32,000 nucleotides of DNA, taken from positions 56,534 to 88,533 of the IMG/VR virus record IMGVR_UViG_3300043811_000163. One strand, given 5' to 3'. Of this stretch, positions 5,466 through 10,576 are shown one piece after another. Each line of letters begins with the position of its first letter. The stretch's first letter is position 1. The stretch comes from a virus. Under the pieces are notes generated by a model. The model had not been told where the DNA came from and ran no database searches. It saw only the letters and a list, made by a program, of their open reading frames with translations. Made by a program: the position numbers and the translations under genes.

Positions 5466-6065
5466 ATGAGACCGTCCGTTCGAGCCGCGTTCCGCCCGTT
5501 CACGGTGCATTATGAAGGATGCTGCCCATTTCTGTACCTAGACGTCAAGGGCCTCGTCACGTGCGCGATCGGTAATCTCGTTGATCCCGTCGAGCTCGCG
5601 TTGCCGTATCCTTGGATGACTCCCGGCGGAACACCCGCAGCGGAAGACGCGATTCGCGCGGAATGGGCCTACGTCAAATCGCGAACGGATCTCGCGCCGA
5701 AAGGCGGCGGCATTTTCGCCTCGATCACGACGCTGCGCCTTTCCGATGCCGGCATCGATCAGGTCATGTCTGGCAAACTGAACGAGGTCGACGCGCAGCT
5801 CGCTCAGCGATTCGCTGGATACCCAAGCTGGCCTGCCGATGCTCAGCTCGCCGTGCTCTCGATTGCATGGGCGGCGGGTGCCGCATGGAAAGCGCCCAAG
5901 TTCCAGGCGTTCGCGGATGCCGGAGATTTTGCCGGTTGCGCGACCGAGAGCGGGATCCATTCGGCGAGAGATCCGGCCGATGCGGCTCTGCTTCAGAATG
6001 CGGCGCACGTCATTGCGGAAGGGCTCGACCCGGACGTACTCCAGTGGCCGAATGTGCTCGCTTAG
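5466..6065 (+). CDS. Phage lysozyme / endolysin, GH24 (T4-lysozyme-like)
   Basis: GGAGG lies upstream of the ATG. Signature YEGCCPFLYLDVKGLVTCAIGNL matches the E-x8-D-x5-T, EG...Y.D..G..T.G.G pattern. Confidence 0.75.
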   Translation: MRPSVRAAFRPFTVHYEGCCPFLYLDVKGLVTCAIGNLVDPVELALPYPWMTPGGTPAAEDAIRAEWAYVKSRTDLAPKGGGIFASITTLRLSDAGIDQVMSGKLNEVDAQLAQRFAGYPSWPADAQLAVLSIAWAAGAAWKAPKFQAFADAGDFAGCATESGIHSARDPADAALLQNAAHVIAEGLDPDVLQWPNVLA

Positions 6066-6262
6066 CTGCGGAATCCGAAATCAGCCAGCCGCGTCTCGAT
6101 GTCCTCGGCGAGCGAGGGATCCCCATTCGCGCGCGCCAGTGACGCGTAAGCCGCAAGCAGCGGCTGGGCGAGCTTGTCTGAAAACTTGAACGCGAGAAAA
6201 TCCGGCTCGCACCAGTCGTATTTGTCGCTCTTGAACTTGCCGTCCACGATGTGTTCGCCCAT
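6062..6262 (-). CDS. Hypothetical small protein (66 aa), last gene of the minus-strand operon
   Basis: AAGGAG sits 6 nt upstream of the ATG. Its stop overlaps the lysozyme stop (convergent). Confidence 0.6.
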   Translation of the reverse strand: MGEHIVDGKFKSDKYDWCEPDFLAFKFSDKLAQPLLAAYASLARANGDPSLAEDIETRLADFGFRS

Positions 6263-6265
6263 GAT

Positions 6266-6490
6266 TTAGCTCCTTCTCACTTCGATCGAGTCCACAAAGA
6301 GAAAGCCTCGCTCGACCGTGTGGTCGGGGATCACGGCGCAGCCGATCCGCTCGATCAAGGCCGGCACGTCGATCTTGCCCACGTCGTACGGGTGCATCCG
6401 GCAGCTGGTCAGCCGGCACATGCCGGAGCTGATCGCCGTCAGAAAGAGATCGGCGGAGATGCGGGGTCGAATCATGGCCGACTCACCCAT
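6266..6490 (-). CDS. Hypothetical small protein (74 aa; alternative start at 6475)
   Basis: Good GC3 and tightly packed between its neighbours. Confidence 0.5.
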   Translation of the reverse strand: MGESAMIRPRISADLFLTAISSGMCRLTSCRMHPYDVGKIDVPALIERIGCAVIPDHTVERGFLFVDSIEVRRS

Positions 6491-7241
6491 GACGAGCTTT
6501 CAGCGATTCAATTTCTGCCTTCAGCTTTCGGTTCTCGCGTTTGAGCGGGTCGATCTCCTCGGAGATGCGCCGGACGAAGTACGCAACGACCGAGCCCCAT
6601 TCGAACTTGTGGCCGTCGAGCTCGTTGATCATCGCGATCAAGGCGCACTGCGACTCGTCGGAGTGCCTCTTGTACATTGCTGCTGCCTCAGCCATTCGGC
6701 GGATCGTCCCGACTGGGCCATCGTCGCCTTCGATGTCGTGCTTGGCGATCTCGGCGAGAATATCCACCATTGTCGGCTTCGGCGCGCACGCCGATCGGCA
6801 TCCTTCGCATGGGCAGACGCACTCGCCAGGCGTCAAGCTACACGACGGATTGCATCCGCAGTGCTCAAGCGCCACATAATTTCTCGCGGTTCCACGGAAC
6901 TTGCTTGGTTTTTCTTCAGACGTCGGCGTGCACACGGGGCAAGGACGGCGATTGGCTAAGCACGACGGATAGTGGCACCCGGGAGTCGCGTGCTCCGGTG
7001 GATCGCACACAAACTTCGCGCCGCCGCACTCGGGACATGGGCCAGGACTGGCCTTCGCTTGATCGGGCACGTTCAGCGCGACGGCAGCCAAATGCCGCGC
7101 TCCGCCGGAGTGATTGTCCATAGCCTCCGCGATCTGCTGTCGGCAAACTTCGATCAGAGCATCGGTATAACGTTCGAAAGAGCGAAGCTTCCCCGGAGCC
7201 AAATCGATCGCGCGCTGTCGCAATTCATCGAAACGACTCAT
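6483..7241 (-). CDS. Cys-rich protein with a C-terminal coiled coil
   Basis: ATG 7241 forms an ATGA overlap with the stop of the PurA-like gene. Central CPECGG...C...CPVC...CGC..C...CVCPCEGC cluster. C-terminus ends KRENRKLKAEIESLK. Confidence 0.6.
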   Translation of the reverse strand: MSRFDELRQRAIDLAPGKLRSFERYTDALIEVCRQQIAEAMDNHSGGARHLAAVALNVPDQAKASPGPCPECGGAKFVCDPPEHATPGCHYPSCLANRRPCPVCTPTSEEKPSKFRGTARNYVALEHCGCNPSCSLTPGECVCPCEGCRSACAPKPTMVDILAEIAKHDIEGDDGPVGTIRRMAEAAAMYKRHSDESQCALIAMINELDGHKFEWGSVVAYFVRRISEEIDPLKRENRKLKAEIESLKARHG

Positions 7242-8500: not shown

Positions 8501-8503
8501 GAT

Positions 8504-9496
8504 TCAGAGCCGTTCGACCGCGCTCGACCTCTCGGCCTTCTCGGGAAGATCTCCCTTGCCGACCGGAGCCAAGGCCGTGCTCTTCGCGAGCGCATCGAGA
8601 CCGGCGGCAGCATCCTTCGCGACCGCGGCGCTCGCACCGACATCGGTCAAGTCGGTATGAATCGCATCGGCCGAGGTCGTGCCCTCGAGAAGCCCAATGG
8701 CAGCGCCGATGGTCTCGCAGACGGCTTCCGGGTTCTTGATCGAAATGACTCGCTCGTCGCCGAGCAGTTCGACCCATGCCTTGCGCAGCCATTTCGCGTC
8801 GGCATGGTTGGCGCCGCCTGGAATAATGAAGAAGATTTCCCACTTCTCTTTCGCTGCTGCGACGATCTCTCGGGTCGAAACGTCGGACTGCGCATTGTCG
8901 CCGATGAGCGCGTCGAGCTCGCCTTTGGTCGCTACCTCGAAGGGCGCTTCATCTCCAATGACGAAGAGGTAGCCTTTTTTGCCCCGCTTCTCCCACGCGT
9001 CGGTCTTCACGCGATGCGCGAAGAAGTAGAGCGCGTCCTGGTAGCTCTCCGTGTTCTGTCCTCCGCCGCCGCCCTCGAGCACGACGTTCGTGATGTTGTC
9101 GTCCATCTCGATGCCGCTCTCGAACTGGCCGATCTGCAAGGGCACCTTGTCGGCGAAGTAGTCACCGATCGCCCCGAACAGAATCTGCGGATCGGTCACG
9201 TAGTTTTTGCGGAGCAAGAGCCCCATGAGCTGCGGGATTTTGGCTTGCACGACGGGCGGTACCGCGGCCATGGATCCGGTCACGTCGAGAAGGACCGCGA
9301 TCGGAACCGAGTTCGGATGCGCGTCGCTGTCGCGCGCTTCCCTGATTTTGCCGTGAATGTTCAGCGTGTCGTGCACCTTCTTCGGTGCGACACCGGTTTT
9401 CACATCGTGATCGTATGAGAATGTCGGGATCGCGTTTGCGGCGCGATGCGCCACACGGCTTCGGTAATGGTCATCAGAATACGAACTTCCACCCAT
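8504..9496 (-). CDS. von Willebrand factor A (vWA) domain protein with an intact MIDAS
   Basis: AVLLDVTGSM (DxTxS), a later GGGQNTES Thr and LFVIGDEAP Asp, followed by an Ala-rich C-terminal tail. Confidence 0.8.
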   Translation of the reverse strand: MGGSSYSDDHYRSRVAHRAANAIPTFSYDHDVKTGVAPKKVHDTLNIHGKIREARDSDAHPNSVPIAVLLDVTGSMAAVPPVVQAKIPQLMGLLLRKNYVTDPQILFGAIGDYFADKVPLQIGQFESGIEMDDNITNVVLEGGGGGQNTESYQDALYFFAHRVKTDAWEKRGKKGYLFVIGDEAPFEVATKGELDALIGDNAQSDVSTREIVAAAKEKWEIFFIIPGGANHADAKWLRKAWVELLGDERVISIKNPEAVCETIGAAIGLLEGTTSADAIHTDLTDVGASAAVAKDAAAGLDALAKSTALAPVGKGDLPEKAERSSAVERL

Positions 9497-9511
9497 TTTG
9501 GACCTTCTTTC

Positions 9512-10576
9512 TCACATGCTGAGCGGTCGATAGACCGGTTTGCCGACGAGCTTTCGTAGAAGCTCGTCAAATTCTTCGTGCAGTGCCCAGGCATCATCGG
9601 GTCGCGCGCTCTGTTTGGCAAGCATGGACCCGGAAAGAAATGCGCGCACGTGCTGCGGACAGGATCCGTTGGTCCCGAGAAGCCCGCGCATCAAGGATGC
9701 CGCCATGAAAATGTCCGTCTGGGCCGTCGCCGGTTTCTTGGCTCGGACCTCGGGCGGGTATGCAATCGACTTGTCGCTCGAGATGGCTCGGATCGGTTTG
9801 CCGACCTGGACCGAGTGGCACCAGTCGATCAGTTTCGCCCCGTGCCTTGTCGGGTGAACCACCACGTGCGCGGGCAAGACGGAGCCGTGTACGAGAGATT
9901 GCCGGTGAACGAAACCGAGCACCATCAAAAGCCGCTTGAACATCCAGGCCATGTCGCGAAAGTCGAGACCCCCTGGGTACTTCTGCTTGACCTCGGCGAG
10001 CGTGACGTAGCCTTCGGCCTGCCTGATGACATTCACCCGTCGAGGTTTCCCCGGGCCTTTGCCCCTCATCGTGAACGAGTCGAGCAGCTTCGGAATGAAG
10101 CGATGGTAGTCGCCATCGCCCTTGAGCTTGTCGAGCGCTTTGGCCTCAGTCTCGAGCAAGTCGTTGTCCGCCGAGCTCCGCGCGATCTTGAAGACCGATG
10201 GGTCACCGCCATCGAACGAGCACGCATAGAGAGCGGCGATGTCGCCGGCTGCGAGAAGGTCTCCCACGACGTACCGGCGTGTTTTGGTCTCCACGATCGA
10301 CGGGAATCTCGCTGCGGGCTCGACGTGGGGAGCGCCGTTTCCGTACGTGCCGGCCGCGATCTTCTTTTCGGCTTGCGTCTTCCAGACATTGAGCATCGAG
10401 AGGCACTCGGTCGCCAGCAAGGACGCGCCCCCGTGACGATCAGGATGCACTGCGGCAGCGATTCGATGCCACTCCTTGGTGAGTGCGGCAAGATCCGCGA
10501 TCGTACCGAACACGTCCTCGGGCGCTTTTGCCTGAGAAAGGACGCGGTGCGTGGCCTGTAGATCAAGAACGCTCAC
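9512..10576 (-). CDS. J-domain fused to a protein-kinase-like domain with a degenerate catalytic loop
   Basis: The GTG at 10576 forms a GTGA overlap with the upstream stop. HPD tripeptide at 10439-10447 within a J-like helix pattern. Kinase-like VFKIAR / LLETEAKAL / VHGSVLPAH / LIDW. Confidence 0.75.
   Translation of the reverse strand: MSVLDLQATHRVLSQAKAPEDVFGTIADLAALTKEWHRIAAAVHPDRHGGASLLATECLSMLNVWKTQAEKKIAAGTYGNGAPHVEPAARFPSIVETKTRRYVVGDLLAAGDIAALYACSFDGGDPSVFKIARSSADNDLLETEAKALDKLKGDGDYHRFIPKLLDSFTMRGKGPGKPRRVNVIRQAEGYVTLAEVKQKYPGGLDFRDMAWMFKRLLMVLGFVHRQSLVHGSVLPAHVVVHPTRHGAKLIDWCHSVQVGKPIRAISSDKSIAYPPEVRAKKPATAQTDIFMAASLMRGLLGTNGSCPQHVRAFLSGSMLAKQSARPDDAWALHEEFDELLRKLVGKPVYRPLSM

Follow-up and report, generated by a model that had tools for sequence, protein, structure and literature searches.

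Several described systems bring together proteins of the kinds considered here. Chaperones that pair a MoxR AAA+ protein with a von Willebrand factor A (vWA) protein include CbbQ/CbbO and the Mg-chelatase BchI/BchD. In the TerY-P triad, the vWA protein TerY is reportedly accompanied by a Ser/Thr kinase and a PP2C phosphatase (Anantharaman, Iyer and Aravind 2012). Phages carry NAD+ reconstitution pathways (NARP), namely, NARP1 (Adps and Namat), NARP2 (Nampt and Nmnat), and NARP3 (PnuC and NadR). NrtR proteins are regulators of NAD+ genes that respond to ADP-ribose (Rodionov et al. 2008, PMC2330246), and NrtR-like regulators occur with vWA “peptide-binding chaperones” in conflict systems centred on ADP-ribose (Iyer et al. 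2022, PMC9503650). Here, we analysed a window of 32 kb (the whole stretch of 32,000 nucleotides, positions 56,534 to 88,533 of the IMG/VR virus record IMGVR_UViG_3300043811_000163, a metagenomic contig of 98 kb). It carries three adjacent minus-strand genes, hereafter called the trio, encoding a J-domain protein with a degenerate kinase, a vWA protein, and a PurA-like enzyme.

These three genes are the conserved unit, which many bacteria and many large or temperate phages inherit as one block. Bacterial copies frequently follow an NrtR-type Nudix/winged-helix regulator, as the downstream genes of an operon that it heads. With a probability of about 40%, we read it as a bacterial nucleotide-modifying module associated with NAD+ and ADP-ribose that has been repeatedly captured by phages, in which the PurA-like enzyme would be catalytic, the vWA protein an obligate substrate or adaptor, and the J-domain pseudokinase a recruiter of DnaK that binds a nucleotide or a client. 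The core genes of the window, with lengths in amino acids (aa), are as follows:

9512..10576, minus strand: core gene 1, J domain and degenerate kinase, 354 aa from the GTG at 10576
8504..9496, minus strand: core gene 2, vWA-fold protein with a metal ion-dependent adhesion site (MIDAS) motif, 330 aa
7238..8500, minus strand: core gene 3, PurA-like P-loop enzyme with a remodelled aspartate site, 420 aa

Conservation and distribution of the trio

We built hidden Markov models (HMMs) for the kinase, vWA, and PurA-like proteins and scanned 168 loci, 151 of which had enough flanking sequence (81 groups at 75% vWA identity). The gene orders in these 151 loci were as follows:

J-domain kinase, vWA, PurA-like: 123 of 151 loci
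vWA, PurA-like, J-domain kinase: 8 of 151 loci
PurA-like, J-domain kinase, vWA: 1 of 151 loci
vWA and PurA-like only: 14 of 151 loci
J-domain kinase and vWA only: 3 of 151 loci
vWA only: 2 of 151 loci

The vWA and PurA-like genes were found together in 146 loci and the complete trio in 132. The genes were co-directional in every locus, with a median stop-to-stop spacing of about one gene length. The pairwise distances of the three proteins were correlated (Spearman coefficients of 0.45 to 0.65; 0 of 300 permutations reached the observed value), which argues that the block is inherited together. The synteny expected in the preliminary description of this DNA is thus present in most of the 168 loci.

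Homologues of each of the three large open reading frames (ORFs) number from hundreds to thousands, and all three are real genes; for the vWA protein, more than 4,000 clusters of homologous vWA-like proteins were identified. Bacterial relatives occur in at least 577 species genomes (one genome per species scanned) from four phyla, Actinomycetota, Chloroflexota, Planctomycetota, and Myxococcota, in ordinary chromosomal contexts, so that the trio is not the phage-specific device first envisaged. Among the Actinomycetota, relatives were found in Micromonospora, Streptomyces, Kitasatospora, Nocardiopsis, Actinoplanes, and Embleya. In IMG/VR, 345 contigs carry a relative, many of them of 100 to 440 kb, and the GC content of the 80 that we examined ranged from 28% to 71%.

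A tblastn search of isolated phages revealed the arrangement kinase, vWA, small ORF, and PurA-like gene in 201 records of Mycobacterium phages of cluster C (for example, Mangeria gp261-264), at 35 to 38% identity. The same search retrieved the vWA and PurA-like pair in phages of Rhizobium and Vibrio. When the kinase profile was compared by hhalign with the genes lying upstream of vWA in Vibrio phage pv27 and Rhizobium phage TM30, the probability stayed below 1%, so that these genes are not related to the kinase. The idea of a hidden kinase in such phages was rejected, the stretches of about 10 kb that were examined holding the vWA and PurA-like pair only. Therefore, the minimal core is the vWA and PurA-like pair.

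On one trio contig of 285 kb (locus L170), positions 420-3014 code for a protein of 864 aa that bears major-vault-protein domains (MVP_shoulder, and Vault_3 weakly), which seem unusual for a phage-like contig.

The PurA-like enzyme has lost its aspartate ligands

The window protein matches Pfam PF00709 over residues 7 to 367 (192 bits for a cut-off of 27; E = 1.8e-56) and carries a GDEGKG P-loop and an NGGAQAGH motif. Its best match in the PDB is E. coli PurA (E = 4e-35). It was first described as a divergent PurA paralogue, which agrees with these matches and with its scores below the equivalog cut-offs. Among the Pfam families tried on the window proteins, this assignment was the one supported, while DnaJ, Pkinase, and VWA gave no match at E < 0.1.

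The functional residues of E. coli PurA, including T301, R303, and R305, which we take to be the aspartate ligands, and the others in the roles we assume for them, were mapped onto 45 family members in E. coli numbering. The P-loop G12-D13-E14-G15-K16-G17, H41, Q224, T239, G274, N295, D333, and the S414-x-G416-P417 loop are kept. D13 and K16 are present in 44 of the 45 members and H41 in all of them. The three aspartate-ligand columns are replaced in all 45 members: T301 by tryptophan (42/45), R303 by glycine, histidine, or glutamate, and R305 by phenylalanine (39/45). The adjacent G302 has become an invariant glutamine. Among the ligands of the IMP 5′-phosphate, T239 is kept in 45/45 members, N38 is changed to glutamine and T129 to cysteine (44/45 each), and R143 is not conserved, in a part of the alignment that is gappy. 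V273 is an invariant histidine.

Since the phosphotransfer residues are retained, the GTP-dependent activation of the 6-oxo (lactam) group is probably intact. Because the ligands T301, R303, and R305 became W, G, and F, we infer that the amine nucleophile would no longer be free aspartate, and the nucleotide may be larger than IMP or different from it. The ligation of aspartate, put forward in the preliminary description as part of PurA-type chemistry, is doubtful for the same reason.

The gene could also be an ordinary auxiliary metabolic gene, that is, a working adenylosuccinate synthetase that raises the AMP supply during infection and has nothing to do with its neighbours. The full-length PF00709 match, the label “adenylosuccinate synthase” given by sources, and the conserved catalytic residues D13, K16, and H41 would all fit. 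Nevertheless, the protein reaches at most 154 bits with the NCBIfam PurA equivalogs, whose cut-offs are 345 to 700 (best model NF002223, 154 bits for a cut-off of 402; TIGR00184, 134 bits for 395), the aspartate ligands are replaced in 45/45 members, and the vWA gene is linked to it in 146/151 loci. Moreover, in free-living Actinomycetes, the PurA-like gene is an additional member of its family, besides the housekeeping purA that these bacteria presumably have. We consider this explanation very improbable.

Even less credible is the one implied by the database labels, a PurZ-type enzyme serving a 2-aminoadenine (Z) genome. The best PHROG is phrog_1211 (E = 6.6e-66), labelled “2-aminooxy adenylosuccinate synthetase,” and the mycobacteriophage homologues have the identical name in RefSeq. 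The NCBIfam PurZ model (NF038379) gave only 36.7 bits for a cut-off of 300, over residues 7 to 62, and the PurZ structures were matched at E = 0.037 (6FKO/6FM1, PhiVC8) and E = 1 (7ODX, S-2L), against 4e-35 for E. coli PurA. By analogy with PurA, a succino-adenylate synthase should need the aspartate ligands that are gone, and the gene also occurs in bacterial chromosomes under an NrtR-type regulator. None of the scanned ORFs of the window (32 kb of the 98-kb contig) was labelled DatZ, MazZ, or DpoZ. Taken together, the scores and residues lead us to regard the protein as neither PurA nor PurZ. On the scores of the window protein, the label is misleading and probably an annotation error spread through PHROG-based pipelines. 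Homologues bearing it include NC_054718 (L001 5977-7305), OR413349 (L002 5971-7083), and other RefSeq entries.

The vWA protein is the nearly constant partner

The vWA protein matches PHROG 2971 (“unknown function,” E = 1.7e-61), and none of its 47 homologues was recognized by a Pfam VWA-family model. The AlphaFold2 (AF2) model (pLDDT 89.3, pTM 0.88) was assigned by Foldseek to integrin beta I-like/vWA domains (probability 1.0; E = 1e-6), with matches including the A3 domain of von Willebrand factor and the vWA domain of SpaC. The window copy carries the motif D71-V-T73-G-S75, and D71, T73, S75, E150, S151, D182, and E183 are invariant in 47 sequences. The vWA fold therefore holds, with a putative MIDAS site. 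The first description of this site as DxTxS with a distal threonine and a distal aspartate stands for the motif and the aspartate; the threonine is not among the conserved columns, and E150 and S151 are invariant at the middle position instead.

Trio loci almost never lack the vWA gene, whose product is 42 to 70% identical between phyla. Among the dereplicated lineages listed (from 87 groups), whether of bacteria or of viruses, essentially every one has a vWA protein whose N-terminus reads M-G-x-x-x-[W/Y/F]-[S/N/T]...Y...R. In the AF2 model, the first residues (about seven) form a tail of lower confidence ahead of a helix spanning residues 8 to 20. A glycine at position 2 normally means that the initiator methionine is removed and that a free glycine alpha-amine is exposed; the natural nucleophile of PurA is also an alpha-amino group.

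On these grounds, we speculate that the PurA-like enzyme might join a GTP-activated purine nucleotide, at C6 of IMP or a relative, to the alpha-amine of the N-terminal glycine of the vWA protein, under an ADP-ribose-sensing NrtR switch and with DnaK service through the J-domain pseudokinase. The lost residues are those that bind the two carboxylates of aspartate, with Trp, Gln, and Phe in their place, the vWA gene is almost never absent, and essentially all the listed vWA homologues start with M-G-x-x-x-[W/Y/F], all of which is consistent with such a conjugation. If so, an AMP-type nucleotide in N6 linkage would sit on the N-terminus of the vWA protein and raise its mass by about 330 Da. We know of no described protein-nucleotide conjugation of this N6-linked N-terminal kind, and we hold this specific reaction to be a long shot.

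A J domain fused to a pseudokinase

The first protein of the trio matches PHROG 3043 (“kinase,” E = 1.6e-47). At the family level, Pfam recognized Pkinase in 41 of the 53 homologues and DnaJ in 28 of them (at E ≤ 0.01; best value, 5e-6), though neither in the window copy at E < 0.1. The HPD motif of the J domain (H44, P45, and D46 of the 354-aa protein) is invariant among the 53 homologues; in the AF2 model (pLDDT 94.9), it falls within a helical bundle at the N-terminus, after helix 29-43 and before helix 49-75. The best Foldseek matches are the kinases AAK1, GAK, and PknB, of the eukaryotic type (E = 1e-12).

The model shows a bilobal kinase fold in which the beta3 lysine (K130), the alphaC glutamate (E144), the APE glutamate (E276), the alphaF aspartate (D288), and a conserved arginine (R325) are invariant, and the DFG-like aspartate (D251) nearly so (at least 90% of the sequences). 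The catalytic aspartate and asparagine are missing. The catalytic loop reads V-H-G-[A/S]-V-L-P-x-H, the HRD aspartate being replaced by alanine in at least 90% of the homologues and by serine in the window copy, and the asparagine by histidine family-wide. The J domain and degenerate kinase announced in the preliminary description are both present, and pseudokinase is a sensible working label for the fusion.

NAD+ and ADP-ribose genes recur beside the trio

Clustering of the flanking ORFs revealed one standout neighbour, a protein of 230 to 280 aa encoded directly upstream of the trio on the same strand. It combines NUDIX and NrtR_WHD domains and belongs to the NrtR family (Pfam, 2.7e-28 and 4.8e-22, respectively). 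An NrtR-type gene was found upstream in 66 of the 168 loci, corresponding to 17 of the 87 groups, 4 of which are viral. In Actinomadura viridis, the stop codon of the regulator gene overlaps the start of the kinase gene, forming a four-gene operon among ordinary chromosomal genes. More than 25 Micromonospora genomes have identical flanking genes around the trio, which argues for a stable cellular function. In two metagenomic contigs, there is a string of six genes encoding NrtR, NAMPT, an NMNAT-like protein, the J-domain kinase, the vWA protein, and the PurA-like enzyme. Over all loci, NAMPT was a neighbour in 6, NADAR in 7, and NMNAT-like genes in 4; free Nudix genes were found in others. This link to NrtR and to NAD+/ADP-ribose genes was not part of the preliminary description, and a PurA-like partner of NrtR or vWA is mentioned neither in PMC2330246 nor in PMC9503650.

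These associations suggest that the module acts in a purine-nucleotide chemistry tied to NAD+ breakdown and ADP-ribose. A phage would gain from it the upkeep of the nucleotide and NAD+ economy of the infected cell, or a blunting of immunity based on NAD+ or inosine nucleotides, and its motive for carrying the trio would be the same as for carrying NAD+ salvage genes. The mechanism that we infer has four steps, conditional throughout. First, in a GTP-dependent reaction, the PurA-like enzyme would place a phosphate on the 6-oxo group of a nucleotide of the hypoxanthine or guanine type, a step that we propose because it retains the P-loop, D13 as catalytic base, H41 as catalytic acid, and Q224. 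Second, the activated purine would be passed to an amine other than free aspartate. Third, the vWA protein would be the obligate partner, either as an adaptor gripping a target via the MIDAS or as the amine donor via its invariant N-terminal glycine. Fourth, the pseudokinase would bind a nucleotide or a client without phosphorylating it, and its J domain would bring host DnaK to load or release the complex.

Several points weigh against the idea of an NAD+/ADP-ribose-associated module. The evidence for an NAD+ link is guilt by association. About 80% of the dereplicated groups lack this link, and scans of the proteins of the window and its source contig found no NrtR, NAMPT, or NADAR gene in the window. 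The connection between PurA-type chemistry and NAD+ turnover is not obvious, because a 6-oxo group is missing from adenine nucleotides, ADP-ribose, and NAD+. Given that the ligands of the IMP 5′-phosphate are altered, the enzyme may act on something other than a simple nucleoside monophosphate, or even other than a purine. Finally, ORF calling in the comparison loci was crude (the longest ORF from the first start codon), and some of the IMG/VR “viral” contigs of 300 to 440 kb may be cellular DNA with prophages.

The changes at the nucleotide site bear on another explanation, in which the PurA-like enzyme is a sink that removes IMP, dIMP, ITP, or dITP produced by host defences based on deaminases, with the vWA and J proteins tuning or targeting it. 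The Kongming system uses dITP as a signal to an NADase, and RADAR and CARF-deaminases convert ATP to ITP. Immunity based on dITP and ITP has been documented (PMC12967843, PMC12669630). The residues for recognition and activation of a 6-oxopurine are kept, and the changed contacts to the 5′-phosphate and ribose (N38, T129, R143, V273, and R303) would suit a triphosphate or a deoxyribose. Moreover, the co-located NAD+ salvage genes counter the same NAD+-depleting end point. Yet a sink would leave unexplained the stable bacterial operon headed by NrtR, the obligate vWA partner, and the loss of aspartate binding, since the normal PurA reaction would suffice for a simple sink. We observed no co-variation of the trio with a deaminase or defence gene. 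We therefore regard an inosine-nucleotide sink as unlikely.

Alternatively, the trio could itself be a module of abortive infection or superinfection exclusion, in which the kinase-like and vWA proteins sense an invader, in the manner proposed for vWA/kinase switches of the TerY-P type, and the PurA-like enzyme responds by depleting IMP or GTP or by producing a purine analogue that is toxic. The kinase domain weakly matches the defence-associated kinases MkoA (5e-12), PD-T4-6 (1e-6), MADS6, and PglW, the distribution of the trio is enriched in those phyla (Actinomycetota, Chloroflexota, Planctomycetota, and Myxococcota) for which vWA-containing conflict systems have been described, and in the window it occupies an accessory slot of a temperate phage. 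Nevertheless, the vWA and PurA-like proteins have no PADLOC model, the catalytic aspartate of the kinase is missing family-wide, and the shared flanks in Micromonospora look like those of core genes rather than those of an island. The vWA identity between phyla indicates slow evolution for an immune sensor, and no nuclease or membrane effector recurs nearby (flanking-ORF clusters, 168 loci). The trio is also found on jumbo-sized viral contigs and on cluster C mycobacteriophages, which are understood as lytic. A defence or exclusion role thus appears rather unlikely. The probability left after the NAD+/ADP-ribose-associated module and the four alternatives (ordinary PurA, PurZ, inosine sink, and defence) belongs to something else.

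A few loci show further features around the regulator and the NAD+ genes. Upstream of the regulator, a simple search for palindromes yielded suggestive sites, none of them consistent across lineages. In L020, three palindromes of the TAGTGT...ACACTA type, such as TTAGTGTCTTAATGACACTAA, overlap the start of the NrtR-like gene (1280-1969) and are candidate operators; other lineages have different palindromes or none. In the six-gene loci L004 and L168, genes for an FtsK/SpoIIIE-family ATPase and for a Ser/Thr kinase of 494 to 510 aa (at 1821-5068 and 1-2950, respectively) lie divergently just upstream, and small prophage-like ORFs follow in a run downstream. In Rhizobium phage RHph_TM30 (L003 1-2128), genes for a HAD hydrolase, a PRTase_3 protein (a ComF-like phosphoribosyltransferase, 9e-46), and a Nudix protein (annotated as NMN adenylyltransferase/NUDIX) lie 3 to 5 kb upstream of the vWA and PurA-like pair. 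The combination of a PRTase and a HAD protein is the “nucleoside-like metabolite” module tied to Ter systems. The two-gene unit nrtX-nrtY was reported from Proteus, Hahella, and Streptomyces in a paper that does not say what the two genes encode (PMC2330246).

The trio is cargo of an early-left operon in the window

All six ORFs that the preliminary description placed in a tight minus-strand array are present (as listed: 6062-6262, 6266-6490, 6483-7286, 7238-8500, 8504-9496, and 9512-10630). Besides the trio, the features of this region and of the two early operons are the following:

6483..7241, minus strand: Cys-rich protein with a C-terminal coiled coil, passenger, 252 aa from the ATG at 7241
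6266..6490, minus strand: 74-aa ORF, co-transcribed passenger
6062..6262, minus strand: passenger ORF of 66 aa that closes the leftward operon
10573..15408, minus strand: upstream part of the same leftward early operon (from gene calls and Pfam families of the source contig)
21711-22625, 22553-23668, 23665-25182, and 25663-27414, plus strand: genes of the rightward early operon

Between the kinase stop (9512) and the vWA ATG (9496), there is a gap of 15 nt containing the Shine-Dalgarno sequence GAAAGAAGG, and the vWA stop (8504) is 3 nt from the ATG of the PurA-like gene (8500). The TGA of the latter (7238) and the ATG of the Cys-rich gene (7241) share a 4-nt ATGA overlap; the GTG at 7286 listed for the Cys-rich gene is probably not a real start. 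The Cys-rich stop (6483) overlaps the following ATG (6490) by 8 nt. A gap of 3 nt separates the next stop (6266) from the ATG at 6262 of the 66-aa ORF, which is preceded by the Shine-Dalgarno sequence AGAAGGAG. The Shine-Dalgarno sequences before the vWA gene and this last ORF were both rated good. The 66-aa ORF converges on a plus-strand gene (5466-6065). The kinase most plausibly starts at the GTG at 10576, because this codon overlaps the stop of the upstream ORF (GTGA) and the resulting N-terminus agrees with the homologues; the public gene call places the start at an ATG (10591, 359 aa). Given this overlap, the tight packing extends further upstream.

The leftward operon begins near 15408 and comprises about 14 genes, the six ORFs being the last of them. 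From 15408 on, it encodes a helix-turn-helix Cro/CI-like protein, a 237-aa ORF, a RecE/YqaJ exonuclease (13533-14426; PHROG 434, “RecE-like exonuclease,” 2.4e-49), an 84-aa ORF, a phrog_3657 protein of 509 to 544 aa, and ORFs of 82, 149, and 147 aa, with successive ORFs overlapping by 4 nt. Matches to phrog_3657 and phrog_902 were found among the proteins of this part. The rightward operon encodes a DnaD-like loader/replication initiator, a primase, a DnaB-like helicase (1e-63), and a 583-aa DNA methyltransferase, and the two arms form a lambdoid-style early region. The co-transcription and the early-left accessory position proposed at first, with an exonuclease upstream, are thus both found. 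In the window, the trio is cargo at the end of this operon, driven by the phage early-left promoter, with three unrelated passengers behind it.

The Cys-rich protein has many CxxC-type spacings and a C-terminal coiled coil resembling a leucine zipper (HALZ, E = 8e-4). Its Pfam matches are weak and of the coiled-coil type only, and it had none in PHROG, NCBIfam, or PADLOC. An exhaustive search of 1.84 billion representative proteins gave five homologues at E ≤ 1e-3, two of which were at E ≤ 1e-10. The 74-aa and 66-aa ORFs had no family match in Pfam, PHROG, NCBIfam, or PADLOC. No phmmer homologue of the three passengers was found among all the ORFs of 166 other loci. The same search with the passengers and the upstream small ORFs gave a single match, for the 82-aa phrog_902 protein encoded three genes upstream of the trio (11459-11707, minus strand), whose homologue in Vibrio phage pv27 (L002 1952-2209; E = 1.6e-13) is encoded about 3 kb upstream of the vWA and PurA-like pair. 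All three genes, the Cys-rich one and the two short ORFs, are passengers specific to the lineage and do not belong to the conserved module. The initial grouping of all six genes as one functional unit was therefore dropped, the passengers having no homologue at other trio loci and the Cys-rich protein only two clear homologues anywhere.

Significance

The trio is common rather than the curiosity of one phage, being found in at least 577 species genomes, hundreds of viral contigs, and about 200 mycobacteriophages. Its members are labelled in databases as “hypothetical protein,” “serine/threonine kinase,” or with the misleading “2-aminooxy adenylosuccinate synthetase.” The trio combines an enzyme predicted to activate a 6-oxo group without the residues for binding aspartate, an adhesion-type domain with a putative metal site, and a pseudokinase that would recruit Hsp70. 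It is tied to NAD+/nucleotide metabolism, a very active area of research on phage-host conflicts, by its repeated occurrence after an ADP-ribose-sensing regulator and next to NAD+ salvage genes. Once known, its reaction would be a new branch of metabolism related to nucleotides or NAD+, or a new protein modification, and an annotation error that is widespread could be put right. Tractable models exist in the cluster C mycobacteriophages growing on M. smegmatis and in strains of Micromonospora or Streptomyces.

Comparison with known systems

The PurA-like protein resembles PurA (EC 6.3.4.4; PF00709; E. coli structure 1ADE) by a whole-length fold match and by the conserved P-loop aspartate and lysine, His41, Gln224, Thr239, Asn295, Asp333, and S-x-G-P guanine loop. 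It differs in the replaced aspartate ligands, the change of N38/T129 to Q/C, the loss of R143, the invariant histidine in place of V273, scores under all the equivalog cut-offs, and the vWA gene alongside. An ordinary PurA was rejected on the cut-offs and the lost ligands. With PurZ, the N6-succino-2-amino-2′-deoxyadenylate synthase of Z-genome phages, it shares the status of a phage-borne PurA-family paralogue, a common PHROG, and a label. Its similarity to PurZ is marginal, its gene partners are others, and it occurs in bacterial chromosomes; the PurZ or Z-genome reading was rejected on the scores (36.7 bits for a cut-off of 300; structures at E = 0.037 to 1).

The arrangement of a vWA gene adjoining that of a protein with a kinase fold recalls the TerY-P triad, the analogy first drawn for this locus. 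However, the kinase of the trio lacks the catalytic aspartate and has a J domain, and the third partner is a PurA-like enzyme. No PP2C phosphatase recurs among the neighbours in the 168 loci or appears in the Pfam-annotated contigs, and with the kinase degenerate, this identification was abandoned. As in the MoxR/vWA pairs, the gene of a P-loop NTPase adjoins that of a MIDAS vWA protein, which suggests nucleotide-driven work on a protein held by the MIDAS. In contrast to these pairs, the NTPase of the trio belongs to the PurA family, with catalytic residues for a small molecule and no AAA+ ring, and a J domain is added.

Like NARP, the trio is metabolic cargo on phages, and several trio loci are strung together with NAMPT and NMNAT-like genes of the NARP2 type. 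The trio proteins were not assigned by Pfam, NCBIfam, or PHROGs to PRPS-like, NAMPT-like, NMNAT, PnuC, or NadR families, and no NAD+-forming reaction can be written for them. NARP1-3 were rejected, the NARP3 paper describing PnuC and NadR, which are unrelated to the trio. With PADLOC v2, the trio gave only generic kinase-domain matches and none for the vWA or PurA-like protein, and a known anti-phage defence system was rejected accordingly.

The NrtR/ADP-ribose conflict systems (PMC9503650, section 3.8) have in common with the trio a Nudix/winged-helix regulator heading the operon, a vWA protein read as a Mg2+-dependent peptide binder, occasional NADAR neighbours, and an occurrence in Actinobacteria and Planctomycetes. 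They differ in being centred on an ADP-ribosylglycohydrolase and phosphatases, which the trio loci lack, and PurA or adenylosuccinate is not mentioned in that paper. In the searchable literature outside subscription-only sources, there was no description of the trio and no paper linking a PurA-like protein with vWA, a J domain, or NrtR, in agreement with the initial statement that no described system combines the three activities. Each domain of the trio comes from a known superfamily. The trio as a whole fails the defining tests of PurA, PurZ, TerY-P, NARP1-3, and the PADLOC systems.

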